Assembly: GCA_002293685.1 (NCBI GenBank)
Contig: DBDS01000007.1
Location: 40,140 to 104,139 of the forward strand
Length of the DNA: 64,000 nt
Reading direction: 5' to 3'
Source: Patescibacteria group bacterium UBA926
GTDB taxonomy: Bacteria; Patescibacteriota; Doudnabacteria; UBA920
The translations under genes and the position numbers were made by a program. Below the pieces are notes generated by a model. It searched no databases. It was not told the DNA's origin and was given only the letters and a program-made list of their open reading frames with translations. Shown piece by piece: positions 1,664 to 64,000 of this stretch. Each line of letters starts with the position of its first letter. Position 1 is the first letter of the stretch.

Positions 1664-1706
1664 AATCCCCGGAAGCCTGAAAGGCTATCCGGGGTCTTTT
1701 TATTTT
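1664..1706. terminator. Bidirectional rho-independent terminator between the convergent 127-aa gene and valS.
   Basis: Hairpin CCCCGGAAGCCTGAAAGGCTATCCGGGG followed by TCTTTTTATTTT on the + strand. On the - strand the same hairpin is followed by TTCTTTTTT. Confidence 0.55.
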
Positions 1707-4003
1707 GGCCAGTTGGCGATAATGAGTGTTTTATCTTCCACGAGCTTACCTTCGCGTAACTTCTGCCATAGTACTTCTGTTACGAATGGCATGAACGGAT
1801 GGAGAAGTTTTAAAATGTGTAAGAGAATGTGAAGCAGTATTGCTTGAGTATTAGCTTTTTGATTTTCGTTCTGAATTTGTTCTTTTGTTGCTTCGATATA
1901 GACGTCTGCAAATTCTTTCCATACGAATTCATAAAGTGTTTGCGCCGCGTCATGAATGCGGAAAACATTCAAGCTCTTGGAAACAGATTCAATTGTTTCT
2001 GAAAGCTGGTTTAAGATGAGTTGATCGGCTTTGGTGAGCTTGTCATTCTGAGGCGAAGCCGAAGAATCTAGATCCTTCGCTACACTCAGGATGACAGCCA
2101 CTTCATCTGCAGAGATATTGGTTAGGATATATCTTGTGATATTCCAAAGCTTGTTCCCAAAGTGCTTCATACCTTTGATTTTATCCTCTGCTAAAGCGGT
2201 ATCTGTTCCAGGGGCTGTATTGAATACCAAGGCAAAACGCAATGCGTCGGTGCCGTATTTTTCAATCATGTCGAGCGGGTCGATAATATTGCCAAGGCTT
2301 TTACTCATTTTTTGGTTTTTGGAATCTCGGATTAAGCCGTGCAAATAAACATGTTCGAACGGAATTTGCCCTAAGTGATAACCGCTCATCAATACCATAC
2401 GAGCAACCCAGAAGAATAAGATATCGTATCCAGTTTCCATTACAGTTGTTGGATGGAAGGTTTTTAAATCCGGGGTTTCGTTTGGCCAACCTAAAGTAGA
2501 GAAAGTCCACAGTCCAGAAGAGAACCAAGTGTCCAAAGTGTCTTCGTCCTGAGTCCAGCCTTCGCCTTCAGGCGCTTCAATTCCTACATACATGTTACTG
2601 TCATCCTGAGCATCACTGTCATCCTGAGCGTTAGCGAAGGATCCATTATCAGATTCTTCATTCCGCTTCGCTCCACTCAGAATGACAGGGGTAGTTTTGT
2701 ACCAAACAGGAATACGATGCCCGAACCAAATCTGACGAGAAATACACCAATCGCGCAAGTTATCTATCCAGTGGAAGTAGGTTTTGTTAAAGTGATCTGG
2801 AAAAATTTTTATTTGCCCGCTTGTTACCACTTGCCGCATTAACTCTTTTAACGTGGTTTCTGTGCCTGAATCAATTCCTTCAATTTGAGACTTCTTTAAA
2901 GTAAAAGGTTTATTTACATCTAAGAACCACTGCAGTTTCGGTAATGGCTCGATAATGCCACCGCTTCTTTCGGCTGTGGCAACATTTTGTTTGACCGATT
3001 CTTCGCGCTCCAATAGATTCTCGCTTCGCAACCATTCGACAATGGCTTCACGCGCCACTGTTGTTTTTTGATCAATCACACCTTCTTGCCCAGCGGTCAT
3101 TTTTGCAAACTCGTTAATGACTTGCTTGAAAGGAAGCTTGTGTCGTTCGCCGATTTCAGCATCAACTTGGCTATGAGCTGGAGTGACGCCCAAAGCACCA
3201 GTTCCAAATTCTGGGTCAACGCTTTCTTCACCAATAATTTTGATGTGAAGTTGTTCACCTGCAAAAGTAACATCAAATTCTTGACCGATAAATTGTTTGT
3301 AGCGAGCATCTTCAGGATGAACTGCAACTGCGGTGTCACCAATTTTGGTTTCCGGGCGTGTGGTAGAAATTGAGATAGGGAAGTCGGCGCTATATTTGAA
3401 AGTATAAAGAGTCGCTTCACGCTCTTCGTGAACAATTTCGTCATCAGAGATAACAGTTTGGCCTTTCGGATCCCAGTTGATTACTTTGTGCGCACGGTAA
3501 ATTAAACCGTCGTCGTACATATTCTTAAAAGCTGTGCGAACAGCTAGACTGCGAGGTTCGTCTAAGGTGTATGCTTCGCGGCTCCAATCAACGGAAGCAC
3601 CAAGCGCTTTGATTTGACCAACGATTGTGTCGCGACTTTCTGCTGCAAATGTTTCCACGCGCTTTACGAATTCTTCACGACCTAAATCGGTTTTGCGAAC
3701 ACCTTCTTTGGTTAAGATTTTTTCTACTTTGGATTGGGTCGCGATTGCAGCGTGGTCTGTTCCTGGTAACCATAAAGTCTTGCGTCCTTGCATGCGACGG
3801 AAGCGAGTGAGTATATCTTGAATTGTCACGAACAGCGCGTGGCCAACATGAAGCGTTCCAGTCACGTTTGGGGGCGGCATGATAATAGAGAACGGTTCGC
3901 CGTCACCTAAATTATCTGGGTTAAAATACCCAGAATCTAGCCAGTTTTGGTAAATATCCGCTTCGTATTTTGAGGCTTCATAGGCCTTATCTAGTTCAAT
4001 CAT
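1700..4003 (-). CDS. valS: Valyl-tRNA synthetase (class I aminoacyl-tRNA synthetase). It carries two in-frame family-A repeat insertions.
   Basis: HIGH motif (PNVTGTLHVGHAL) and KMSKS motif are present. CP1 editing-domain region and anticodon-binding region are present. 767 aa. Inserted peptides AVILSVAKDLDSSASPQNDK and NEESDNGSFANAQDDSDAQDDS are encoded by repeat DNA. Confidence 0.93.
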   Translation of the reverse strand: MIELDKAYEASKYEADIYQNWLDSGYFNPDNLGDGEPFSIIMPPPNVTGTLHVGHALFVTIQDILTRFRRMQGRKTLWLPGTDHAAIATQSKVEKILTKEGVRKTDLGREEFVKRVETFAAESRDTIVGQIKALGASVDWSREAYTLDEPRSLAVRTAFKNMYDDGLIYRAHKVINWDPKGQTVISDDEIVHEEREATLYTFKYSADFPISISTTRPETKIGDTAVAVHPEDARYKQFIGQEFDVTFAGEQLHIKIIGEESVDPEFGTGALGVTPAHSQVDAEIGERHKLPFKQVINEFAKMTAGQEGVIDQKTTVAREAIVEWLRSENLLEREESVKQNVATAERSGGIIEPLPKLQWFLDVNKPFTLKKSQIEGIDSGTETTLKELMRQVVTSGQIKIFPDHFNKTYFHWIDNLRDWCISRQIWFGHRIPVWYKTTPVILSGAKRNEESDNGSFANAQDDSDAQDDSNMYVGIEAPEGEGWTQDEDTLDTWFSSGLWTFSTLGWPNETPDLKTFHPTTVMETGYDILFFWVARMVLMSGYHLGQIPFEHVYLHGLIRDSKNQKMSKSLGNIIDPLDMIEKYGTDALRFALVFNTAPGTDTALAEDKIKGMKHFGNKLWNITRYILTNISADEVAVILSVAKDLDSSASPQNDKLTKADQLILNQLSETIESVSKSLNVFRIHDAAQTLYEFVWKEFADVYIEATKEQIQNENQKANTQAILLHILLHILKLLHPFMPFVTEVLWQKLREGKLVEDKTLIIANWPK
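2041..2096. repeat. Family-A repeat, short copy, inserted in-frame inside valS.
   Basis: TGTCATTCTGAGGCGAAGCCGAAGAATCTAGATCCTTCGCTACACTCAGGATGACA. Translated on the minus strand it gives AVILSVAKDLDSSASPQNDK within ValRS. Confidence 0.7.
2598..2689. repeat. Family-A repeat with a duplicated left terminus, inserted in-frame inside valS.
   Basis: CTGTCATCCTGAGCATCACTGTCATCCTGAGCG...CTCAGAATGACAG. It encodes the acidic, low-complexity ValRS segment NEESDNGSFANAQDDSDAQDDSNMY. Confidence 0.7.
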
Positions 4004-6368: not shown

Positions 6369-7781
6369 TTAAGCATGTGCAGGTTCTGACTCGGCTTGCT
6401 TTTTAAGCAAGTAAGAAAGAATTGGTGGTGTAAAGAGGGTAGTTAAGATTACCATGATGATGATAATCGAAAACACTTCATCATTTACAACACCGAGAGA
6501 TTTACCGATAGTGGCAAAAATCAATCCAACTTCTCCACGAGGAACCATCCCGAACCCGACCAAGTTCTTGTTGACACTGCCAGCAGCTAATCCGGAAAGC
6601 CATTTACCGATGAATGCTACTGCAGTAATTGCTAGTCCGACAAGAAGGATTTTTGGTTCGAATAAGGTAGCTAAATCAACGTTCATACCGGTGTATACGA
6701 AGAATAGCGGAACCAAGAACAGAGCGATTGGCTCGATTAGTTCTTCAACGTGCTTGTCGGAGTGGTGGGTAACAAGCTTCATAATCTTTTCTTTTCCAGC
6801 TTCATCAACGTGTTCCAAATGTTCTTCGATATCACGCGCCACTTTTGGTCTACGGAAGTACTTAAAGTGAACAGGGTCGAGCACAAGTCCGGCCGCGAAC
6901 GCGCCTACGATTGGAGCCAAGCCAATAAATCCAGCTACGGCCGCAAAGATTAACGCGAAGCTGATGGCGAGAGTGAACTTCATTCCAACGCCTGTGTGAA
7001 CTTTGGATAAGAAACGCCCGAAGTAAGGCGCAGTAAGCTGTCCAAGAACAATCGCACCAATTAAGAACGCAAGAGCTTTAACGATAATCAATCCTACTGT
7101 GCCCACACCAACTGTTCCAAGAGTTACAAGTGCAGAAACTACAGCCAAAATGATTAAACCAATTACGTCATCAATAACAGCCGCGCCAAGAACAATTTTT
7201 GCTTCAGGCAAACTGAGCTTGCCCAAATCTTTGAACACGCGAGCGGTAATACCTACTGATGTCGCGGTTAGAGCTGCACCGAGGAATAGGTAAGTGTTGA
7301 GTTCAAGACCTGGCATTAACAAAGGTCCAACCACCCAAGTTCCAAGGACAAACGGTGCTACAACACCAATGATTGCAACCATAAACGCACGCAAACCGAC
7401 TTTCTTCATCTCAACGATATTTGATTCCAAACCAACTTGGAATAACAAAATGATCACACCAAGTTCCGCAAGGAATGGAATGAATAAATCGCTTTTGATT
7501 GGCTCGAAAAAATTCAAACCGATTAAAGCTAGGTTACCAAGAACGATACCAATCACAAGCTCACCGAGTACTGCGGATTGTCCGAAGCGTTCAATTAAAC
7601 TTGCAAGCTTGGCAGCGACTAAGATTACCGCTAACCAAAGGATGCTCATTAGGAATCCATCACCACCTGCACCACCTGCTGCATGAACAACTGGAGCAAA
7701 AGTTAGGGTGATTAAACCCATGTAGATAAAAGTCTTCGCGCGCATTCGCGCTGGCCAGAAGCGGCCGAGTAGGGATTGCAT
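6369..7781 (-). CDS. Cation:proton antiporter (CPA family Na+/H+ or K+/H+ exchanger) with a C-terminal cytoplasmic extension.
   Basis: About 11 transmembrane helices with glycine-rich segments, then a charged soluble segment (DIEEHLEHVDEAGKEK). Confidence 0.6.
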   Translation of the reverse strand: MQSLLGRFWPARMRAKTFIYMGLITLTFAPVVHAAGGAGGDGFLMSILWLAVILVAAKLASLIERFGQSAVLGELVIGIVLGNLALIGLNFFEPIKSDLFIPFLAELGVIILLFQVGLESNIVEMKKVGLRAFMVAIIGVVAPFVLGTWVVGPLLMPGLELNTYLFLGAALTATSVGITARVFKDLGKLSLPEAKIVLGAAVIDDVIGLIILAVVSALVTLGTVGVGTVGLIIVKALAFLIGAIVLGQLTAPYFGRFLSKVHTGVGMKFTLAISFALIFAAVAGFIGLAPIVGAFAAGLVLDPVHFKYFRRPKVARDIEEHLEHVDEAGKEKIMKLVTHHSDKHVEELIEPIALFLVPLFFVYTGMNVDLATLFEPKILLVGLAITAVAFIGKWLSGLAAGSVNKNLVGFGMVPRGEVGLIFATIGKSLGVVNDEVFSIIIIMVILTTLFTPPILSYLLKKQAESEPAHA

Positions 7782-18233: not shown

Positions 18234-18555
18234 ATATTTTAAATTTTAGCTGGACTTTATAAGAGTTCAGCGGTACTGTTGTCCTTATGAATAATTAGAC
18301 ACAGAAAGGAGCTTGTAGAGAAAAACGTTGATTCTTAAGGAGAAAATCCGTATAATAATAGTAACAATTTATTAAGTAGCCTAAACCGTTTTTATTGGCG
18401 GCATGGTGAAAAGCCCCATGGAAAATACTGAACCCTGCGTTCAGCGTCCTTCCATGGGCCATATCGGGAAACTGATATGGAAGCTTCGGCTTCAGCTGGC
18501 GTGGGGCTTTGTGTTATACAAAGCGTGAAGCCAGCAGAAAGACCCATGGAAAACA

Positions 18556-33453: not shown

Positions 33454-34386
33454 ATGGAAAAGATATACAACACAATTATAATTGGAAGTGGCCCAGCAGG
33501 CCTAACAGCGGCTTTATACGCAGGCAGAGCAGAGATAGAACCATTAGTAATCGCAGGGCTTCAACCAGGCGGACAGTTAACAATCACAACCGATGTAGAA
33601 AATTTTCCAGGTTTTCCCGAAGGGATTCAAGGTCCCGAATTAGTTGCTAATATGACTAAACAAGCTGAGCGCTTTGGGGCAAAGATTGCATACGAAAATG
33701 TTGCAGGTGTAGATTTTTCACAGAAGCCCTTCAAAGTTAAAACTGATGGCAATGAGTATCAAGCAAAGAGCGTAATCATTGCAACTGGTGCGGAAGTTAA
33801 ATGGCTTGGCTTGGAAAATGAAACTCGGCTTCGTGGTAAAGGTGTAACAGCTTGCGCAACTTGCGATGGATTCTTCTTTAAAGATTTAGACATTGTTGTG
33901 ATTGGCGGCGGAGACAGCGCGATGGAAGAAGCTTTGTTCCTTACAAAATTTGGAAAGTCGGTAACTATTGTTCATCGTCGTGATGAATTTAAAGCTTCAA
34001 AGATAATGCTTAAACGTGCACAAGATCATCCAAAGATTTCATTTATCACAGACGTAACCGTTGTAGATATTTTAGGAGAAGATTCTTTTTCTGGTATTCG
34101 TATCAAGGATAATAAAACTGGTGAAGAACGCGATGTTGCTGCTAAAGGATACTTTGTTGCAATCGGTCACACACCAGCATCGAAAGTATTCCAAGAAGCA
34201 GGAATTGAAGTTGATGCTAAGGGTTATGTGATTCCAAAAGAATTTACACAAACAAATATCGAAGGAGTATTTGTAGCGGGAGATGTTCATGATCATCGAT
34301 ATCGTCAGGCCATCACAGCGGCAGGGGAAGGTTGTAAGGCGGCGTTAGATGTAGAGAAATATCTTACTGAGAAAGCACAGGAATAA
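33454..34386 (+). CDS. trxB: Thioredoxin-disulfide reductase.
   Basis: FAD site GSGPAGLTAALYAGRA, redox CATCDG, NADPH site GGGDSAMEEA. Confidence 0.9.
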   Translation: MEKIYNTIIIGSGPAGLTAALYAGRAEIEPLVIAGLQPGGQLTITTDVENFPGFPEGIQGPELVANMTKQAERFGAKIAYENVAGVDFSQKPFKVKTDGNEYQAKSVIIATGAEVKWLGLENETRLRGKGVTACATCDGFFFKDLDIVVIGGGDSAMEEALFLTKFGKSVTIVHRRDEFKASKIMLKRAQDHPKISFITDVTVVDILGEDSFSGIRIKDNKTGEERDVAAKGYFVAIGHTPASKVFQEAGIEVDAKGYVIPKEFTQTNIEGVFVAGDVHDHRYRQAITAAGEGCKAALDVEKYLTEKAQE

Positions 34387-34390
34387 TTTA

Positions 34391-34492
34391 CTGTCATTCT
34401 GAGCGAAGTCCGCCTAAATCTCGCAGAGATTTTGTGCGGACGAAGCAAAGAATCCCATAAGATCCTTCGTCGCTTCGCTCCTCAGGATGACG
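34391..34492. repeat. Family-A palindromic repeat, intergenic.
   Basis: CTGTCATTCTGAGCGAAGTCCGCCTAAATCTC...GACGAAGCAAAGAATCCCATAAGATCCTTCGTCGCTTCGCTCCTCAGGATGACG. Confidence 0.7.
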
Positions 34493-34683
34493 TCTCTATG
34501 TCATTACCGGGCCCACCGCAGGTGGGAACCGGGAATCCACTAGTATAGACAACATAATTTAATAGATCCCCGGTTCTCCTCGCTCACCGTACCTGTAGTA
34601 CGGTTCGCTCAGTGCTCGCCAGCTTCGAGCTCTTGGCCAAACTAGACAGCTTTCTGGAAATTCTAAAATAATTTATTAGTACT

Positions 34684-35934
34684 ATGAACAATCCATTTGA
34701 ATCTGCGAAAAAACAATTGCAAATAGCAGCCGATACCGCGCAGCTAAATCTAAATCAGGTTGAAAGATTGATGCATCCAGATAGATACATCGAGGTTTCT
34801 ATCCCGGTAGAAATGGATGACGGTTCGCAAAGAATCTTTGAAGGCTTTAGAAGCCAACACAACAATACCATGGGGCCATACAAAGGTGGTATTCGTTATC
34901 ACCAAGACGTTAATCTTGATGAAGTAAGGGCTTTAAGCTTTTGGATGTCTTTTAAAAATGCCGTTATTAATGTTCCTTTTGGTGGTGGTAAAGGTGGAAT
35001 TATTGTAAACCCAAAAGAGTTATCCGAAACCGAATTAGAAAAACTTTCTCGTGGTTACATGCGTCAAATGTGGCGAAATTTCGGTCCGGAAATTGATGTT
35101 CCTGCACCGGATGTAAATACCAACGGTACAATTATGGGCTGGATGCGCGATGAGTTTGAAAAGCTTAGCGGTACAATCGCGCCGGGAGTAATCACAGGTA
35201 AAGCAATTGAAGATGGTGGTAGTGAAGGTCGAACAGAAGCAACTGGTTTTGGCGGCGGTTATATACTTAGAGAAGCCTTGGAAGCAGGTTTGATTTCCCC
35301 TCCTTCTCAAGGAGGGGTGGCCGAAGGCCGGGGTGGTCTAACCATTGCAATCCAAGGGTTTGGTAACGTAGCTACTTATTTGTCTGAATATGTTGCCCAG
35401 CATGGTTTCAAAATAGTTGCGTTGTCTGATAGCAAAGGTGGTGTTTATAGTTCAGATGGTATAGATGTCAGTTTGGCAGAACAGCATAAGAAAATTTCAG
35501 GCTCACTCAAGGATTTAGAAGGAACTTCAGAAATTACTAACGAGCAATTATTAGAACTTGATGTTGATGTATTAGTTCCAGCCGCTTTGGAAAATGTATT
35601 TACAGCAGAAAACGCTGAAAAGATTAAAGCGAAATTTATTCTGGAAATGGCGAACGGTCCAACTACTCCAGAAGCCGACGAAATTTTTGCTAAGAATGGC
35701 GTTACTGTTGTGCCTGATATTTTAGCTAACAGTGGAGGGGTATGTGTTAGTTATTTTGAGTGGTATCAAAATATGCACAATGAGAAGTGGTCAAAAGAAG
35801 ATGCTCTAAAGAAATTAGATGAACACATGGTTGCTGCTTTCAAAGAAGTACGCGATGCTCAAGTAAAATATAATTGTACTCTGCGAACCGCAGCCTATAT
35901 CGTGGCAGCAAACCGAATTCTTTCAAAAATGTAA
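34684..35934 (+). CDS. gdhA: Glutamate dehydrogenase (Glu/Leu/Phe/Val dehydrogenase family). It carries an in-frame family-B repeat insertion.
   Basis: Catalytic Lys box GPYKGGIRYH. NAD(P) site GFGNVA. The inserted peptide ISPPSQGGVAEGRGGL is encoded by repeat B. Confidence 0.85.
   Translation: MNNPFESAKKQLQIAADTAQLNLNQVERLMHPDRYIEVSIPVEMDDGSQRIFEGFRSQHNNTMGPYKGGIRYHQDVNLDEVRALSFWMSFKNAVINVPFGGGKGGIIVNPKELSETELEKLSRGYMRQMWRNFGPEIDVPAPDVNTNGTIMGWMRDEFEKLSGTIAPGVITGKAIEDGGSEGRTEATGFGGGYILREALEAGLISPPSQGGVAEGRGGLTIAIQGFGNVATYLSEYVAQHGFKIVALSDSKGGVYSSDGIDVSLAEQHKKISGSLKDLEGTSEITNEQLLELDVDVLVPAALENVFTAENAEKIKAKFILEMANGPTTPEADEIFAKNGVTVVPDILANSGGVCVSYFEWYQNMHNEKWSKEDALKKLDEHMVAAFKEVRDAQVKYNCTLRTAAYIVAANRILSKM
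35297..35338. repeat. Family-B GC-rich double-hairpin repeat, inserted in-frame in gdhA.
   Basis: CCCCTCCTTCTCAAGGAGGGGTGGCCGAAGGCCGGGGTGGTC. Confidence 0.7.
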
Positions 35935-45091: not shown

Positions 45092-45553
45092 ATGAATAGT
45101 ATTGACAGTATTTTGAATATGATTCGGACTGAAGCGGGGGAAAGAACTGCAAGTGCACGCACTGATCGATTGAGCGTTTCTGAGCTCGAACTGTATCAGC
45201 AGGTACAGTCAGAAGATGTGAACGAAGTTAGGATTTCAATTACGAATGAGCAGATCGAAGAAATCATGCATGCGGGTGCGTCTAACCCGAGCTATCATTC
45301 AAGCATCGATTGGGTTATAGAAACAACTCCTGAGTATGCTTTTATCGACAGTTTGGGTGTAACGGCATTGCCTGTACTTCGAAAGCTTTTGGCTGAAGAC
45401 TTCCATGATCAGTTAGTAGTAATTCACTTGCTGGGGAAACATGAACCTTTCTGTCCTGAAATTCCAGAGGAGGCACTAAGCCGTGTTCAGGAACTTAGGC
45501 GGATCTGGTTGGAATTTATTGAGTCCCACTCGCTTCTGACGGAAGATGGTTAA
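45092..45553 (+). CDS. Hypothetical protein.
   Basis: 153 aa. SD GGAGGG. Followed by the first copy of the duplicated terminator. Confidence 0.45.
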   Translation: MNSIDSILNMIRTEAGERTASARTDRLSVSELELYQQVQSEDVNEVRISITNEQIEEIMHAGASNPSYHSSIDWVIETTPEYAFIDSLGVTALPVLRKLLAEDFHDQLVVIHLLGKHEPFCPEIPEEALSRVQELRRIWLEFIESHSLLTEDG

Positions 45554-45590
45554 AACAAAATCGGCCTTGCTTACAGCAGGCTGATTTTTA
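45552..45590. repeat. Direct repeat, copy 1: a terminator-like hairpin nearly identical to the trpS terminator at 46184-46222.
   Basis: AAAACAAAATCGGCCTTGCTTACAGCAGGCTGATTTTT versus AAAACAAAACCGGCTTGCTTACAGCAGGCCGATTTTTT. Confidence 0.7.
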
Positions 45591-45644
45591 TTTTGAGAAT
45601 ATATTGAATAGGACTTTAGAGGTGGTGTGTTATCATCATTACTT

Positions 45645-45690
45645 CCCCTCCTTATTTATGAGGAGGGGTGCCCGTAGGGCGGGGTGGTGG
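45645..45690. repeat. Family-B double-hairpin repeat, forward orientation, at the 5' edge of the DUF559 gene.
   Basis: TCCCCTCCTTATTTATGAGGAGGGGTGCCCGTAGGGCGGGGTGGTGG. Confidence 0.7.
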
Positions 45691-46108
45691 TATGAGATTA
45701 CATAATATTAAAAAATTATATAAACATCGAAAAAAATTACGAAACCAATCAACCTTAGCAGAAATAAGATTGTGGTATTATCTGAAAAAATCAAAATTGG
45801 GCGTAAAGTTTAGAAGGCAGCACAGTGTCGGACCATATATTTTGGATTTTTACTGTAGTAAGTATAAATTAGCAGTTGAGTTGGATGGTTCATCTCATGA
45901 TTTTGAACAAGCTTATTCACGAGATACTGCTCGCACAAAATATCTTGAAGACCAAGGGCTAATTGTTTTGAGATTTGAGAATAGGTTGGTCTTTGAAAAT
46001 ATTCAAGGGGTGGTTGATATGATTAGTTTACATTGTAACCACCCCGGCCTTTCAGGCCACCCCTCCTATCCGCCTTTGGCGGCAGGAGGGGAGGGAAAAC
46101 TTCAGTAA
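45668..46108 (+). CDS. DUF559 / Vsr-like (restriction-endonuclease-fold) endonuclease domain protein. Both ends of the ORF extend into family-B repeats.
   Basis: LAEIRLWYYLKK...FRRQHSVGPYILDFYC...AVELDGSSHD...LIVLRFEN matches DUF559. The likely true start is the internal Met (MRLHNIKK). Confidence 0.65.
   Translation: MPVGRGGGMRLHNIKKLYKHRKKLRNQSTLAEIRLWYYLKKSKLGVKFRRQHSVGPYILDFYCSKYKLAVELDGSSHDFEQAYSRDTARTKYLEDQGLIVLRFENRLVFENIQGVVDMISLHCNHPGLSGHPSYPPLAAGGEGKLQ
46039..46095. repeat. Family-B double-hairpin repeat, inverted orientation, at the 3' edge of the DUF559 gene.
   Basis: CCACCCCGGCCTTTCAGGCCACCCCTCCTATCCGCCTTTGGCGGCAGGAGGGGAGGG. Its reverse complement matches family-B architecture. 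Confidence 0.7.
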
Positions 46109-46183
46109 ACCTCAGGATGCACCACATACCGGAACAGACGGGGTAGTGAAGTCTTTAAGTTCATCATTAAATCAAGTTAACTT

Positions 46184-46222
46184 AAAACAAAACCGGCTTG
46201 CTTACAGCAGGCCGATTTTTTG
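46184..46222. repeat. Direct repeat, copy 2: the trpS terminator hairpin, overlapping the trpS stop codon.
   Basis: See copy 1. About 36 of 38 nt identical. Confidence 0.7.
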
Positions 46223-47161
46223 TTTGACTTCAGTTATAGTTGGAACGGCGATTTCTCTTGCTCGGGCAGCTCCATCATTGAGAATTTTGGAAAGCTCAGA
46301 TTTATCGTTGAGTAATTCCTTTTTACGCTTTCGGAAATCTGCAAAATGATCGCTGATTGTTGTAGCTAGTACAGACTTCAATTCACTGTATCGAATTTCA
46401 CCCGATTTCTGTTCAGCAGTAAATTTATCGACGACGCTTTTATCAGCAAAATAGCTTAGAGTTTCGATTAAGTTTTTAGCGCCTGTTTCAGTCGTGACCG
46501 CCTTTTTTAACTTTGCTTCGATAATTTCTGGAGTGTCGTCCAGATAGAGAGGGTCATCGCCAGTTTTGCTCATCTTCTTGTCCGGATTTTTTAAACTCAT
46601 TATTCGAAGAGGCTTGCGTTCGTACGGTTTTGGCTCTGGAAAAGTTTCGCCAAATTGTCTGTTGAATTTTCGTGCAATTATTCGAGCGAGTTCTAAGTGC
46701 TGAACCTGATCTTCACCAACAGGAACAAAATTTGGTTTGTATAATAGAATGTCTGCGGCCATTAAGGTAGGGTAGGTAAGCAGACCAGCGTTTACGGAAT
46801 CTTTCTGGGATCGCCCCTTATCTTTATATTGAGTCATTTTCTCGAGTTCGCCAACTGGAGTTATACAATTAAATATCCAAGCCAGCTCGGCATGTTCTAA
46901 AACATGGTTTTGGATAAAGATAACCGATTTCTTTGGGTCGAGTCCGGCAGCAATGTATTCAGCCACAACTTCCAGAGTATCTTGGCGTAATTTTTCTGGA
47001 TCACGAGGAACTGTTAAAGCATGTAAATCCGCCACAAAGAAATAGCACTCAAGTTTCCCTTCATTTTGAATATCTACGAATTGCTTCAAGGCCCCGAGAT
47101 AATTGCCGATGTGCATTCGGCCAGTTGCCTGAACTCCTGATAAAATAGTCTCTTTTTTCAT
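46202..47161 (-). CDS. trpS: Tryptophanyl-tRNA synthetase.
   Basis: HIGH motif (TGRMHIGNYLG). KMSKS (KKMSKT). 319 aa. Confidence 0.9.
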   Translation of the reverse strand: MKKETILSGVQATGRMHIGNYLGALKQFVDIQNEGKLECYFFVADLHALTVPRDPEKLRQDTLEVVAEYIAAGLDPKKSVIFIQNHVLEHAELAWIFNCITPVGELEKMTQYKDKGRSQKDSVNAGLLTYPTLMAADILLYKPNFVPVGEDQVQHLELARIIARKFNRQFGETFPEPKPYERKPLRIMSLKNPDKKMSKTGDDPLYLDDTPEIIEAKLKKAVTTETGAKNLIETLSYFADKSVVDKFTAEQKSGEIRYSELKSVLATTISDHFADFRKRKKELLNDKSELSKILNDGAARAREIAVPTITEVKQKIGLL

Positions 47162-48071: not shown

Positions 48072-48150
48072 GTGTCATTCTGAATCCGCCAAAGGCGGAC
48101 GAAGAATATCATGGAGATCCTTCGGTCGCTTTGCTCCCTCAGGATGACAT
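48072..48150. repeat. Family-A palindromic repeat, intergenic.
   Basis: GTGTCATTCTGAATCCGCCAAAGGCGGACGAAGAATATCATGGAGATCCTTCGGTCGCTTTGCTCCCTCAGGATGACAT. Confidence 0.7.
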
Positions 48151-50079: not shown

Positions 50080-50587
50080 AGTTTATAAATGTACGTTTTC
50101 CGTACTTTGATTATAGAAAAAGTTTTTGCATTTCTGTGAGAACTTTCAATTTCTGTGCACGGAACGCCTAAAAAATTGTTCGCGTCGTGCGGGTGAACTT
50201 GTTGAAAATTCTGTAACATCCGGAATTGCATCGAAAAACTTAGATGCTAATAGCAAAAACTTTTTCATTAATAATTTTTGTGTTGATAGAATTCGAGAAA
50301 TTTTGGTCTGTATAATTTTGTCTCCAAAATAAATCTAAGATTCTAGGAATCAGGGAAGTGGCTTCCGGGGCCGCCTTCGCATGACTTTTACAAACATCTT
50401 GTTTGCAATTAACACATGAATGCTTACTTGATCTGTCATCCCAAGTCCGCTAAAGACGGATTAAGGATCTCAAATAAAAACTCATCTATTAATTGAGTAA
50501 GTTTAGTATACCAGTCATTGGCTTTTTTGTCAACCAACTTTTACCAGAAAACCCTTAAATAAAGGGTATTTTGACCAGTGTTGTATT

Positions 50588-52703: not shown

Positions 52704-53024
52704 ATGGCATGGGGAGATAATAGTAAATTTTCGGAAGACGAACCATTGTGGTCGTTGGTTAAAGAAAGCTCAGGCAGTACTACAATTACACTAATGGCAG
52801 AGACCAGGACTGCTCGCGATGAACGACATAGCGGTAAAGAGCCCAGTGACCGCAAAGAGACAGTGGTTGATTTGGACGAAGATCTCAATCGCTTCATTAA
52901 CAAAAACCGTCGCGATTGTAGACATGAGGAGTTGCTTGCTTTAATTCAAGTGGTATCGGTAGAATCCGTCGCGCTTGAAGCGAGGAAGATTCGAGCACAA
53001 AAGACTACTTCAAGTATTTTATGA
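52704..53024 (+). CDS. Hypothetical protein.
   Basis: SD AGGAGGG 7 nt upstream of the ATG at 52704. Charged, about 106 aa. Confidence 0.35.
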   Translation: MAWGDNSKFSEDEPLWSLVKESSGSTTITLMAETRTARDERHSGKEPSDRKETVVDLDEDLNRFINKNRRDCRHEELLALIQVVSVESVALEARKIRAQKTTSSIL

Positions 53025-54891
53025 TGGCCTCAGCTTTTGCTTCACCAACGAGCTTGGTGAGTTCTTCTATCGGTGCGTGTTTGATTTGATCAACCGTACC
53101 GATTTTTTGTTTCAGTAATTTTTTAGTTTTTGGTCCGATTCCTGGAATCGAGTCGAGTGCAGATTTTGTAGCCTGTTTGCTTCGCAAAGATTTATGGAAT
53201 GTGATGCCAAATCTATGGGCTTCGTCGCGAAGTCTTTGTAATAGTTGAAGAACTGGATTGTCGTGGGACAATACTATCGGATCTTTTTGGTTGGGTAAAA
53301 AGATTTCTTCGATTCGCTTGGCAAGTCCAATCACAGGGATTTTGAGTTTAGCTTCTTTTAATGCTTCTACAGCCATTTTGAGCTGACCTTTACCACCGTC
53401 TATAACTAGCAAGTCTGGAATAGGCCACGCGTCTTTGGGGTCGGTAGGATTTACGCGAGTAAGTCGTCGCCCCAGCATCTGTTTCATCATGGCGAAATCG
53501 TCTGGAGTTTGTTTACCTGTGATTTTAAATTTGCGATACTCAGATTTTGCAGCAACACCATCTTTGGCGACGACCATACTTCCAACCGGATTGGTTCCTT
53601 GCGTGTTGCTTATGTCGTAGCCTTCAATCCGTCTTGGGGTAGTTGGCAATTTGAGTAATTTTTTTAACTCAGCCAAAGTTTCTTGAATCAAATCTGAATT
53701 ACTAGCTTGACTGCGTTGCCATTTCATCAGATGTTCCTTTGCATTTGTTTCACCCATGGCAATGAGTTTTAGTTTTTGACCACGAGTAGGGGAGCTAATC
53801 GCGATTTTAGTTTTGGTACGTGTTGCTAGAAGTGTAGTGAGTAATGGTTTGTTTGGTAGTTCGATTTGGGTGAAAATTTCCTTTGGTAAATCGGTCGCTT
53901 CGGCGTAATACATCTCTGAAAAAGCTTGAAGCACAGTTGCTCCGCGTTCTTCTTCTGGAATCGCCAACAAATTTTGATACAAGAAATTCTCTTTGTCCAT
54001 TAATTTGCCTTCGCGGACCTTGAAAAGGTTTACTCCAGCTGTGAGGCTGTCGCAGTAAATTGAAATAAAGTCCCATGACACTTTTTTGGTTAGAACCGTG
54101 AGTTGCTTTTCTTGCAGAACGGCAATGGCTTTGAATTCATCTCTAAGACGCGCCGCTTTCTCGAACTGTTTTCGTCTCGCCGCGACTTTCATCTCGGCTT
54201 GAATTTGTTTAACTATTGGTGCGGTTTGGCCAGAAAGGAACAAAGAAATTTTTTGAATGTGCAAATCATATTCTTCAGGAGACATTAAGCCGATGCAAAC
54301 TCCTGGACAACGATGGAGGAAATAATAGAAGCACGGGCGCTTGCCGACTTCTTTGTTGGCGCAAAAATGAAAGACGCGCCTAACTAAGTCTAAAGTTTGC
54401 CCAATTTTTTTGGTTGATGAGTACGGTCCGAAGAATTTATCCCGGGTTTTTTCCTCCCTTCGGGATGAAGTCAAGGAATCTAAGTTTTCCCCTCCTCGCT
54501 TGCGAGGAGGGGTGGCCCGTAGGGCCGGGGTGGTGTCTTCAACTTTACGAACATAAGTAATTTGCGGAATCTCAGTAGAATAATCGATTTTAATAAACGC
54601 GTAATTTTTATCATCACGCAACATGATGTTGTACGGAGGGAGATGCTCTTTAATCAGAGTATTTTCTAAGAATAAACTTTCGAGTTCGGAGTTCACTACT
54701 ATATAATCGAAATCGGTTGCTTCAGCCATAAGGAAGGGGAGTTGAGCACGGGTGTCTGTGCCAGAAAAATATTGTGCCAATCGACTACGCAAAACTTTTG
54801 CTTTTCCCACATACAAAACAGTTCCAGTTTTATCTAGGAACTTGTAAACGCCCGGCTTGCGGGGAACGTCCTTGACTTTGTTTTTCAGCAT
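53005..54891 (-). CDS. uvrC: Excinuclease ABC subunit C. It carries an in-frame family-B repeat insertion.
   Basis: GIY-YIG (GVYKFLDKTGTVLYVGKAKVLRSRL). UvrBC domain. RNaseH-like and HhH C-terminus. The inserted peptide TTPALRATPPRKRGGENL is encoded by repeat B. Confidence 0.9.
   Translation of the reverse strand: MLKNKVKDVPRKPGVYKFLDKTGTVLYVGKAKVLRSRLAQYFSGTDTRAQLPFLMAEATDFDYIVVNSELESLFLENTLIKEHLPPYNIMLRDDKNYAFIKIDYSTEIPQITYVRKVEDTTPALRATPPRKRGGENLDSLTSSRREEKTRDKFFGPYSSTKKIGQTLDLVRRVFHFCANKEVGKRPCFYYFLHRCPGVCIGLMSPEEYDLHIQKISLFLSGQTAPIVKQIQAEMKVAARRKQFEKAARLRDEFKAIAVLQEKQLTVLTKKVSWDFISIYCDSLTAGVNLFKVREGKLMDKENFLYQNLLAIPEEERGATVLQAFSEMYYAEATDLPKEIFTQIELPNKPLLTTLLATRTKTKIAISSPTRGQKLKLIAMGETNAKEHLMKWQRSQASNSDLIQETLAELKKLLKLPTTPRRIEGYDISNTQGTNPVGSMVVAKDGVAAKSEYRKFKITGKQTPDDFAMMKQMLGRRLTRVNPTDPKDAWPIPDLLVIDGGKGQLKMAVEALKEAKLKIPVIGLAKRIEEIFLPNQKDPIVLSHDNPVLQLLQRLRDEAHRFGITFHKSLRSKQATKSALDSIPGIGPKTKKLLKQKIGTVDQIKHAPIEELTKLVGEAKAEAIIKYLK
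54490..54536. repeat. Family-B double-hairpin repeat, inserted in-frame in uvrC.
   Basis: CCCCTCCTCGCTTGCGAGGAGGGGTGGCCCGTAGGGCCGGGGTGGTG. Confidence 0.7.
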
Positions 54892-59247: not shown

Positions 59248-59457
59248 TTACTGACGTTTAAAAATATGCTCAATCGGTTTTCCAAAATGTTCCGCAATTT
59301 GCATTGCTAATAGAAGTGAAGGGGCATAGTTGCCTTTTTCAATTGCAATTACTGTTTGTCTGGATACGCCTAACTCAGACGCCAAGTCTTCCTGAGTTTG
59401 ATTACGTTCCTGTCTTAATTTTTTTATGTTGTTTTGTAGCATAAATTTCATTGTCAT
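59248..59457 (-). CDS. XRE-family helix-turn-helix transcriptional regulator.
   Basis: LRQERNQTQEDLASELGVSRQTVIAIEKG HTH_3 signature. 69 aa. Confidence 0.8.
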   Translation of the reverse strand: MTMKFMLQNNIKKLRQERNQTQEDLASELGVSRQTVIAIEKGNYAPSLLLAMQIAEHFGKPIEHIFKRQ

Positions 59458-59534
59458 CCTGAATCATTTTTGTCATCCTGAGCGAAGCGAAGGATCTCAT
59501 AAGGATTCTTCGTCCCGCCGTGGGCGGAACTCAG
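59452..59534. repeat. Family-A palindromic repeat with a duplicated left terminus.
   Basis: TTGTCATCCTGAATCATTTTTGTCATCCTGAGCGAAGCGAAGGATCTCATAAGGATTCTTCGTCCCGCC...CTCAGAATGACACC. Confidence 0.7.
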
Positions 59535-63442: not shown

Positions 63443-63454
63443 CATGCCTAGCAT

Positions 63455-63522
63455 GTCATCCTGAAGGAGCGAAGTGACTGAAGGATCTCAACGAAAGATT
63501 CTTCGCTACGCTCAGAATGACA
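63455..63522. repeat. Family-A palindromic repeat between hrcA and grpE.
   Basis: ATGTCATCCTGAAGGAGCGAAGTGACTGAAGGATCTCAACGAAAGATTCTTCGCTACGCTCAGAATGACAAAG. Confidence 0.7.
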
Positions 63523-63529
63523 AAGTATT

Positions 63530-64000
63530 ATGAATCAAGAAAATAACGAACAAGAAAAAATAGAATTTGAAGATGCCGACATGCAGAGACAGGTCGCCGA
63601 AGCTCAAGAAGAAGCCAAGATGAATTTAGCTGGATGGCAACGAGCTCAAGCAGATTTTGAAAACTACAAGAAGCGAGAGGAAGGCAAGCAAGCCGAACTT
63701 CTGGAATTCGCCAAAGAGGTAACAATTGTAAAATTGTTGCCAACTCTAGATGCTCTTGCGCAAGGCCTAGCCCATGCTCCAGATGGAGTAGATGAAAAAT
63801 GGCTCGTGGGAATCAAGGGCACCCTGGCAAATTTAGATAAAGTTTTGCAAGAAATGGGCGTCAAGAAAATTGAAGCTGTTGGTAAACCGTTCGATCCACA
63901 TTTTCACGAAGCTGTTCGTGAAGTGGAAGGTGAACAAGACGGCTTAATTGTAGAGGAGCTTCAGGTAGGATACGAAATCAATGGTAAGGTGATACGACCA
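63530..64000 (+). CDS. grpE: Nucleotide exchange factor GrpE, 3' partial (it runs off the window end).
   Basis: My own translation from the ATG at 63530 gives MNQENNEQEKIEFEDADMQRQVAEAQEEAKMNLAGWQRAQADFENYKKRE. It is not in the ORF track because there is no stop codon before the window end. Confidence 0.8.
   Translation, partial: MNQENNEQEKIEFEDADMQRQVAEAQEEAKMNLAGWQRAQADFENYKKREEGKQAELLEFAKEVTIVKLLPTLDALAQGLAHAPDGVDEKWLVGIKGTLANLDKVLQEMGVKKIEAVGKPFDPHFHEAVREVEGEQDGLIVEELQVGYEINGKVIRP

Follow-up and report, generated by a model that had tools for sequence, protein, structure and literature searches.

We asked how a GC-rich segment of 42 bp came to lie in frame within the glutamate dehydrogenase (GDH) gene, gdh, of a Candidatus Doudnabacteria bacterium (Patescibacteria group bacterium UBA926), and what kind of element this segment represents. 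The gene lies in a 64,000-nucleotide stretch of contig DBDS01000007.1 (assembly GCA_002293685.1), referred to here as the window, in whose numbering all window coordinates are given. We conclude that the segment is a derived, fixed, in-frame insertion and that it belongs to a structured family of repeats that occurs across phyla. At a probability of about 0.6, we consider it to be a solo copy of a non-autonomous repeat that resembles REPs (repetitive extragenic palindromes) and their hairpin-forming doublets (REPINs), or the Rickettsia palindromic elements (RPEs), but is tied to the Vsr-like nuclease DUF559 and not to a REP-associated tyrosine transposase (RAYT).

A derived in-frame insertion in glutamate dehydrogenase

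The initial annotation, made from the sequence alone, had placed a 42-bp element of a repeat 'family B' within gdh just 5' of the codons for the GFGNVA motif. A string search of the window located the exact 42-mer CCCCTCCTTCTCAAGGAGGGGTGGCCGAAGGCCGGGGTGGTC at 35297-35338 (+), its single exact occurrence, within an uninterrupted open reading frame (ORF) whose product contains the Pfam domains ELFV_dehydrog_N and ELFV_dehydrog and keeps the invariant columns K103 (the catalytic Lys) and G225-V229, confirming this placement. An identical protein (P0001) is recorded in public collections as the glutamate dehydrogenase of a Patescibacteria / Candidatus Doudnabacteria bacterium. The element stands 12 nt (4 codons, LTIA) 5' of the IQGFGNVA codons and leaves the reading frame intact; judged from other copies, it probably starts 2-3 T earlier, at 35294/35295. 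The features of the gene and of its element are as follows.

34684..35934, + strand: glutamate dehydrogenase ORF, 416 aa, uninterrupted; the insert corresponds to residues ~205-218 of the loop 201-219
35295..35338, + strand: solo double-hairpin element in gdh, sense to the gene
35297-35317, + strand: hairpin 1 of the gdh element, CCCCTCCTT/AAGGAGGGG
35319-35329, + strand: hairpin 2 of the gdh element, GGCC-GAA-GGCC
35330-35336, + strand: second G-block of the gdh element, GGGGTGG, a conserved block

An alignment of 120 GDH orthologs, a check that the initial annotation had called for, revealed a true insertion that is absent from 117 of them. The modal ortholog, 406-408 aa in length, reads ...GLVS-GDRK-TIAIQGFGNVA, and the window protein reads GLIS-PPSQGGVAEGRGGL-TIAIQGFGNVA; PPSQGGVAEGRGGL takes the place of GDRK, the adjoining Ser is native, and the peptide across the insert is (L)ISPPSQGGVAEGR. 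At the DNA level, 12 nt (GGAGATCGAAAG, encoding GDRK) were exchanged for 42 nt, a net change of +30 nt and +10 aa. Thus, the frame is kept, as had been claimed, but the claimed addition of 15 aa has to be reduced to a net gain of 10 aa, once the 12 nt lost in exchange for the 42 nt and the native origin of the Ser are taken into account.

The closest ortholog, P0002, has an empty site that reads GLVS-GDRK-TIAIQ, is 91.7% identical to the window protein outside the loop and lies in the same gene order (TrxR-GDH-hypothetical-protease-...-PMM-TrpRS). Neighbour-joining clusters the window GDH with P0002 and P0004, each of which has an empty site; since the empty state is also the family consensus, it is the ancestral one. 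Further, this closest relative contains no element in 21 kb of syntenic DNA, is without the insert that the window carries in uvrC (VESNPSSPTGKNRYFGPY vs VEDTTPALRATPPRKRGGENLDSLTSSRREEKTRDKFFGPY) and lacks the DUF559 cassette described below, the spacing between its PMM and TrpRS genes being just 32 nt. These sequence comparisons indicate that the element entered gdh after the lineage had split from its nearest sequenced relative. The 90% protein cluster has four members, all of 416 aa, found on 14 contigs whose assemblies come from NCBI, JGI, ENA and Logan; a near-complete contig of 851,616 nt has the gdh, uvrC and DUF559 alleles of the window. The insert peptide is identical in the three members for which the insert region is displayed, two of which differ at 7-8 other residues. 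Because the 416-aa form recurs on 14 contigs from independent assemblies, the insert is not an assembly artefact.

To place the insert in the protein, an AlphaFold2 model of the window GDH was built with 54 homologs (mean predicted local distance difference test score (pLDDT) 90.7; predicted template modelling score (pTM) 0.90). Residues 201-219 form a coil between helix 183-200 and strand 220-224. This strand, the first β strand of the dinucleotide-binding fold, continues into GFGNVA. Residues 208-216 are the sole segment with a pLDDT below 50. The solved hexameric GDH structures 1bvu, 1gtm and 1euz (E ~1e-124) align on both sides and leave a gap exactly at the insert. Mapped onto the model, as the initial annotation had proposed, the insertion site is a predicted disordered and permissive loop ahead of the first Rossmann strand.

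The same loop varies in length naturally (GATEDSGRK, EITAEGADAVGTGRK and others). Further, two other lineages have GC-rich inserts here: the GDH protein P0016 (locus L003) carries a short-type element without hairpin 2 at the same nucleotide position, and P0056 (L004) carries a compound insert of ~40 aa in this loop, including CCCCCTCCTCGTGAGGAGGGGGTAGGGGGAGG. Shared descent of the window and P0016 inserts, which have the same flanks, was considered and rejected: P0016 falls outside the clade formed by the window protein and its two empty-site relatives, and its element is of a different subtype, so the hits on the GDH loop were independent.

A structured repeat family within the window and across phyla

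The G+C content of the window is ~41%, so the GC-rich element stands out. Its architecture runs from a C-rich arm (CCCCTCCT) over a loop to a G-rich arm (AGGAGGGGTG), followed by a small hairpin 2 of free sequence and a repeated G-rich arm (GGGGTGGT). We formulated the family pattern as CCCCTCC-N(4-30)-GGAGGGGTG-N(8-16)-GGGGTGG and took the chance level from 100 dinucleotide shuffles. The window yielded four matches (35297 +; 45645 +; 46039-46091 -; 54489 +) when 0.00 were expected. The gdh copy has the three blocks in order (exact match 35297-35336), with blocks 1 and 2 forming hairpin 1. The remaining copies and their genes are listed here.

45643..45689, + strand: element copy 5' of the DUF559 gene, with the inner end GGGGTGG ending 4 nt ahead of that gene's ATG (45692)
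45692..46108, + strand: DUF559 (PF04480) gene for a Vsr-like PD-(D/E)XK nuclease; the domain ends near 46036, and the codons of the tail NHPGLSGHPSYPPLAAGGEGKLQ come from the 3' element
46038..46098, - strand: inverted element copy 3' of DUF559, with a nested mini-hairpin CCGCCTTTGGCGG at 46070-46082 in loop 1
53005..54891, - strand: uvrC ORF, 628 aa; at the linker it exceeds its closest ortholog by 21 aa
54487..54535, + strand: solo element copy in uvrC, in antisense orientation; it is read as TTPALRATPPRKRGGE within the linker that follows the GIY-YIG domain

Pattern and alignment identify these as homologous copies, which bears out the earlier suggestion that the same element type lies in uvrC and flanks DUF559. 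That the likeness might not extend beyond low-complexity GC content was the doubt attached to this suggestion; properly aligned, the copies display three exact common blocks, and their loops and hairpin-2 stems differ. The stems of hairpin 2 change by compensatory substitution (GGCC/GGCC, GCCC/GGGC, GGCCC/GGGCC), and the inner part of stem 1 likewise co-varies. All four copies fold as two adjacent hairpins (as DNA, -12.6 to -20.8 kcal/mol; z -3.0 to -4.4). Hairpin 1, with 9 bp in the fold of the gdh copy, pairs a Shine-Dalgarno-like AGGAGG with CCTCCT, and the RNA hairpin of the gdh segment within the mRNA reaches -21.8 kcal/mol. No Rfam family was detected at the elements when the window was searched at the gathering threshold, nor in 14 element-bearing loci or, at a relaxed E-value, in 45550-46250.

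An exact-pattern scan that covered one genome per GTDB species returned at least 120 stretches with at least 151 copies, and the figures that follow refer to the matches listed. The hosts belong to more than 10 phyla and include Chlamydiota, Beta- and Gammaproteobacteria, Cyanobacteria, Nomurabacteria, Bacteroidota (Pontibacter, Hymenobacter, Pedobacter, Bacteroides and Prevotella), Acidobacteriota, Planctomycetes, Verrucomicrobiota, Turneriella, Ignavibacteria and Actinobacteria; multiple copies or contigs per genome are common. The label 'family B' thus stood for a real family, but its scope is not local, as the label had implied: the repeat is found across phyla and is tied to DUF559 genes. 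The copies share one layout: a lead-in, either T-rich or (A)CT, then the three blocks, then a terminal T. We assessed the pairing of hairpin 2 by a direct count of stem complementarity in 146 distinct copies and in shuffled sequences: a perfect stem of at least 4 bp is present in 79% of the copies vs 10% of the shuffles, with 56 different stem arms, and stem 1 extends into the loop by a mean of 1.7 bp vs 0.4 bp. By this count, the region between blocks 2 and 3 co-varies for structure and not for sequence. Inverted doublets, with the copies 13-180 nt apart, occur at ~25 of the 120 loci. The exact pattern was also present in 44 IMG/VR stretches (L206-L249) on viral or proviral contigs; these copies could be vectors for cross-phylum spread or host DNA at prophage edges.

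Copies within genes were sought among the 151 by requiring an open frame of at least 70 codons on each side, and ten candidates were checked against Pfam. In-frame copies were found in the genes for topoisomerase I TopA (L008, Nomurabacteria), an RlmI-like methyltransferase (L030), PurL (L095), MacB (L116), the tRNA-guanine transglycosylase TGT (L104), a CotH protein (L076), UvrA, with several copies (L099), and a P-type ATPase, directly after DKTGTLT (L081). In a related Doudnabacteria genome (L250), a further copy at 6871-6910 lies within a gene called as a YchF GTPase of 371 aa. The same DNA is read in at least four combinations of frame and orientation (SPPxxGGVxxxRGG, PLLxxEGxxxxGVV, TTPxxxATPPxxGGE and NHPxxxxHPSxxxEG), and the peptide is therefore not what is conserved. 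The UvrC linker (GIY-YIG to YFGPY) behaves like the GDH loop: at least seven other Doudnabacteria UvrC proteins, including P0276, P0294, P0304, P0340, P0348 and P0354, have element-like peptides there. UvrC length in Doudnabacteria spans 590-761 aa (homologs P0241-P0360), so several UvrC regions beyond this linker must carry large inserts.

Coupling of the repeat to DUF559 genes

The ORF that is bracketed by two inverted element copies, 10 kb downstream of gdh, matches PF04480 (Pfam E 2e-31) and is the sole such gene in the window. Its product is related to PDB entry 3HRL, an 'endonuclease-like protein' (E 4e-16), and to NCBIfam PRK09767, described as 'DUF559 domain-containing protein'; we take E. 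coli YcjD to be a member of the same PRK09767 / DUF559 family. The conserved D...ExD..H nuclease positions are intact in the window protein. In PHROGs, DUF559 weakly matched phage HNH and homing endonuclease families in their C-terminal domains, and PADLOC returned no meaningful defence-system match for the DUF559 protein.

The flanks of DUF559 genes were searched in 80 metagenomic loci, representing 73 distinct genes, for a canonical element (up to one mismatch per block) within 160 nt. The element was present in forward orientation upstream of the gene at 43 of 66 loci (65%), in inverted orientation downstream at 41 of 70 (59%) and at both ends at 36 of 63, and in none of 93 control windows placed 640-800 nt away. 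In a variant-agnostic version of the test, the upstream flank was aligned to the reverse complement of the downstream flank, and a score of at least 20 was counted as positive; terminal inverted repeats were detected at 45 of 60 DUF559 loci vs 13 of 60 in the direct-orientation control. The repeats come in lineage-specific versions, which track the DUF559 lineage: a gut Bacteroidales version of the architecture, CTCCTCC..GGAGGAG-TA-CCCGNAGGG-GGAGGTGGT, as well as CCCTCTCCCC.. types and short types without hairpin 2. Further, DUF559 homologs from many phyla have tails encoded by the element (NHPGAARHPS, NHPSLTKEGS, HHPGAPRHPSSMRRG and TTPALRATPPR, the last being the same peptide as the uvrC insert), and other homologs have element-encoded leaders (RRGGPEGRGGG, VVEGWREAPGW). 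We conclude that the coupling of the repeat family to DUF559 genes is both physical and directional.

At one such gene (L085, 5164-6507, - strand), the DUF559 ORF runs through the 3' element into a SpoU methylase gene as a single frame of 448 aa; elements can thus join adjacent ORFs into one when genes are predicted. At soil DUF559 loci (L136, 1230-1433; also L128, L130, L132 and L137), as many as four copies stand in tandem upstream of the gene with a period of ~53 nt, and more copies follow downstream of it.

The same PMM-TrpRS spacer holds the cassette in two other Doudnabacteria (L250, 3785-4401; L251, 129-697), with 66% and 74% protein identity, and the cassette is absent in three others. 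The L250 cassette faces the other way with respect to its neighbours, which is the outcome that recombination between its inverted flanking copies should give, and extra element copies adjoin it. Direct repeats of 44 nt (82% identical; 45553-45596 and 46184-46227), consisting of a terminator-like hairpin, bracket the window cassette, and a similar terminator-like sequence is present on both sides of the L251 cassette; a long duplication of the target, or else a bidirectional terminator present twice, may account for the direct repeats.

A second repeat family, 'A' (TGTCATYCTGAG...CTCAGRATGACA), is also present in the window. The mini-hairpin nested in the 3' cassette copy, CCGCC-TTT-GGCGG, is the core hairpin of this family and recurs at 1193-1207 and 48085-48099; a similar CCGCC..GGCGG hairpin with a different loop is nested in the cassette copies of L250 and L251, which suggests that the elements insert into one another. 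Family A lies in frame in a 767-aa class-I aminoacyl-tRNA synthetase ORF (1700-4003, - strand), around 2070-2096 and 2648-2698, and gives the peptides VILSGAKRNEES... and VAVILSVAKDLDSSASPQNDK. More copies are found at 1134-1254, 34383-34500, 48073-48150, 50434-50474, 59442-59515 and 63453-63531. The spacer between TrxR and gdh (34387-34683), 298 nt in length and full of GC-rich hairpin repeats, measures 3 nt in the closest relative (L001). Elsewhere in the window, a LOOT RNA (Rfam RF03000) was identified at 18378-18493 (+), at 70.2 bits against a gathering score of 46.4.

A search of the full-text literature found no published description of the element or of repeat-flanked DUF559 genes, although most subscription-journal papers lie outside its coverage, so an earlier description is possible. 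Where three papers (PMC3424549, PMC12907096, PMC1189080) mention DUF559 or YcjD, they cover solely a Vsr-like fold or a role in repair.

Known repeat systems and competing explanations

RPEs are said to have been described by Ogata et al. in 2000 as in-frame palindromic inserts in Rickettsia protein genes. The element resembles them in being a short palindromic repeat that lies in frame in housekeeping protein genes (here gdh and uvrC), at surface-exposed or variable positions where an extra peptide is tolerated, and RPEs too belong to reduced, AT-rich genomes. RPEs, however, are ~100-150 bp long, are confined to Rickettsia and relatives, lack the form of a GC-rich double hairpin and are not known to be associated with a nuclease gene, whereas the present element measures 42-50 bp, spans more than 10 phyla, is linked to DUF559 and has Candidatus Doudnabacteria as its host here; length and described hosts set the two apart. 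RPEs are mentioned in the reviews PMC1779305 and PMC10969869.

The likeness to REP/REPIN sequences and their RAYT (TnpA-REP) transposases, the subject of PMC3116915, PMC3479197, PMC8266576 and PMC3733652, lies elsewhere. Both are multicopy, short, GC-rich hairpin repeats that often form inverted doublets, both have one associated gene bracketed by inverted copies at a fixed locus (a single DUF559 gene in the 64-kb window), and in both the repeat co-varies with the protein lineage. The partner here, however, is a Vsr-like PD-(D/E)XK nuclease and not a Y1 HUH transposase of the IS200/IS605-like type, as judged from the Pfam and PDB matches of the bracketed gene, with part of the window ORFs scanned for Y1_Tnp. 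Nor do any of the 151 copies listed have a GTAG or CGTC head; they start with (T)TCCCCTCC. The location is not extragenic, with two of the four window copies and at least eight verified copies in other phyla lying inside coding sequences. The element further differs in having two hairpins and a repeated G-arm, and its sequence is common to many phyla, whereas REPs are species-specific. We conclude that the element is a member of neither the RPE nor the REP-RAYT group, though it works like both.

Three other comparisons were made. The element does not behave as a miniature inverted-repeat transposable element: its ends, CCCCTCC and GGGGTGG, are complementary at only 5 of 7 positions, no duplication is seen at gdh or uvrC, and 12 nt were lost at gdh. 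The GC clusters of yeast mitochondria and the double-hairpin elements of fungal mitochondrial DNA are GC-rich hairpin modules of AT-rich genomes that occasionally lie in frame in protein genes. They share with the present repeat its scattered GC-rich hairpins in an AT-rich genome, and the term 'double-hairpin' fits both; they are, however, organellar and unrelated in sequence and are not known to have a linked nuclease gene of the DUF559 type. Lastly, homing endonucleases with a Vsr fold, of the I-Bth0305I type (PDB 3r3p), are grouped with DUF559 in PMC3424549 and likewise employ a small Vsr-like PD-(D/E)XK domain as the enzyme of a selfish element. Those enzymes are housed by introns or inteins and rely on double-strand-break repair to propagate their own gene, whereas DUF559 is free-standing between inverted repeats, and it is mostly the repeat that is dispersed.

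We infer that the repeat with which DUF559 is associated is also mobilised by it. DUF559 would recognise the hairpin and the repeated G-block and nick there, after which repair or replication would install or maintain copies in trans, a step that we model by analogy on RAYT transposases and REP/REPIN, with a PD-(D/E)XK nuclease in the place of the transposase. Pairing of the C-arm with the second G-block through a T:G mismatch, as a Vsr-type substrate, was considered and set aside as speculation, as it is not general across the repeat variants. Copies that lie in frame would be the remainder after purifying selection, surviving because the element is stop-free and loops are permissive. Of the six frames of the gdh copy, five are open, and the conserved blocks are stop-free in every frame; the gdh allele presumably survived because these blocks are stop-free and the site is a short, variable, disordered surface loop. 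As conservation of the frame suggests, the insert would be translated as a Gly/Pro-rich loop that is neutral and has no function of its own.

Several points weigh against mobilisation by DUF559. We know of no strand-transfer activity in a 115-aa PD-(D/E)XK nuclease. Neither a target-site duplication nor a common target motif was found at the gdh and uvrC sites, and the loss of target DNA at gdh is untypical of classical transposition. There is also no sign of recent activity, because loops and hairpin-2 stems vary among the four window copies, whose gdh member is the same in the strain variants. Lastly, DUF559 lies within 300 nt of the element at just 3 of the 120 loci listed, so the elements far outnumber the gene, although this is expected for a trans-acting, single-copy gene. 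Two of these points favour the chief rival explanation, in which the repeat is genuine and dispersed, but DUF559 genes merely attract the hairpins as preferred landing sites or exploit them as expression, terminator or stability signals, and the spread is due to another transposase, to template switching at hairpins or to recombination after horizontal transfer. The distance of most listed copies from any DUF559 gene, the absence of target-site duplications together with the deletion at gdh, and the tandem arrays that pile up beside some DUF559 genes all speak for this explanation, and the AGGAGG/CCTCCT pairing makes a regulatory use upstream of DUF559 conceivable. We nevertheless consider it the less likely of the two, given that the arrangement is orientation-specific (forward upstream and inverted downstream), that the repeat variant co-varies with the DUF559 lineage, that none of the 93 controls contains the element, that DUF559 reading frames from many phyla have the 3' element fused to them and that no other candidate enzyme was seen beside the copies examined.

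The other explanations concern the gdh segment itself. That the insert was selected as a useful new GDH loop, for example in regulation or interaction, would agree with its being fixed and identical in strain variants and with the independent hits on the same loop in other lineages. We regard this as very improbable, because the same DNA gives unrelated peptides in other genes, depending on frame and orientation, the loop is predicted to be disordered, and the three GDH inserts are unlike in length and sequence. Mature GDH might also lack the insert if the segment were a mini-intron or an intervening sequence, or if ribosomes bypassed it, with its removal coming either ahead of translation or later. 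The strong RNA hairpin in the mRNA would speak for this; yet an intact frame without stops, as found in gdh and in the other in-gene copies, would be needless if the segment were excised, and there is neither an Rfam match nor any intron or intein feature, making this even less credible. Least probable of all, and refuted by the data, is a chance resemblance of GC-rich, low-complexity sequence or an assembly artefact, for which only the richness in G and C speaks: four copies stand against 0.00 expected, exact blocks and a co-varying stem are common to the copies, and the same allele is found on 14 contigs from independent assemblies.

Taken alone, the gdh copy is a modest curiosity, and the interest lies in the cross-phylum family that is coupled to DUF559. 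To our knowledge, in-frame insertions of palindromic elements are textbook matter only for Rickettsia. The same phenomenon is now seen in a bacterium of the Candidate Phyla Radiation (CPR), with an element sequence common to Acidobacteriota, Bacteroidota, Proteobacteria, Chlamydiota, Cyanobacteria, Planctomycetes and others. The elements yield odd Gly/Pro-rich tails and loops in predicted proteins (NHPxxxxHPS, TPPxxxGGE), inflate length variation and can mislead annotation and alignment. The orientation-specific bracketing gives DUF559, a large domain of unknown function, a concrete and testable function. Tentatively, and at somewhat less than even odds, DUF559 may be the partner enzyme of a cross-phylum double-hairpin repeat, making up a second REPIN/RAYT-like system on a PD-(D/E)XK nuclease, whose stop-free elements would routinely persist in frame in essential genes (GDH, UvrC, UvrA, TopA, TGT and PurL) and feed the evolution of loops. 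The bracketing of DUF559 genes also suggests that partnerships between a repeat and an enzyme, of the REPIN/RAYT type, evolved more than once, on different nuclease folds.

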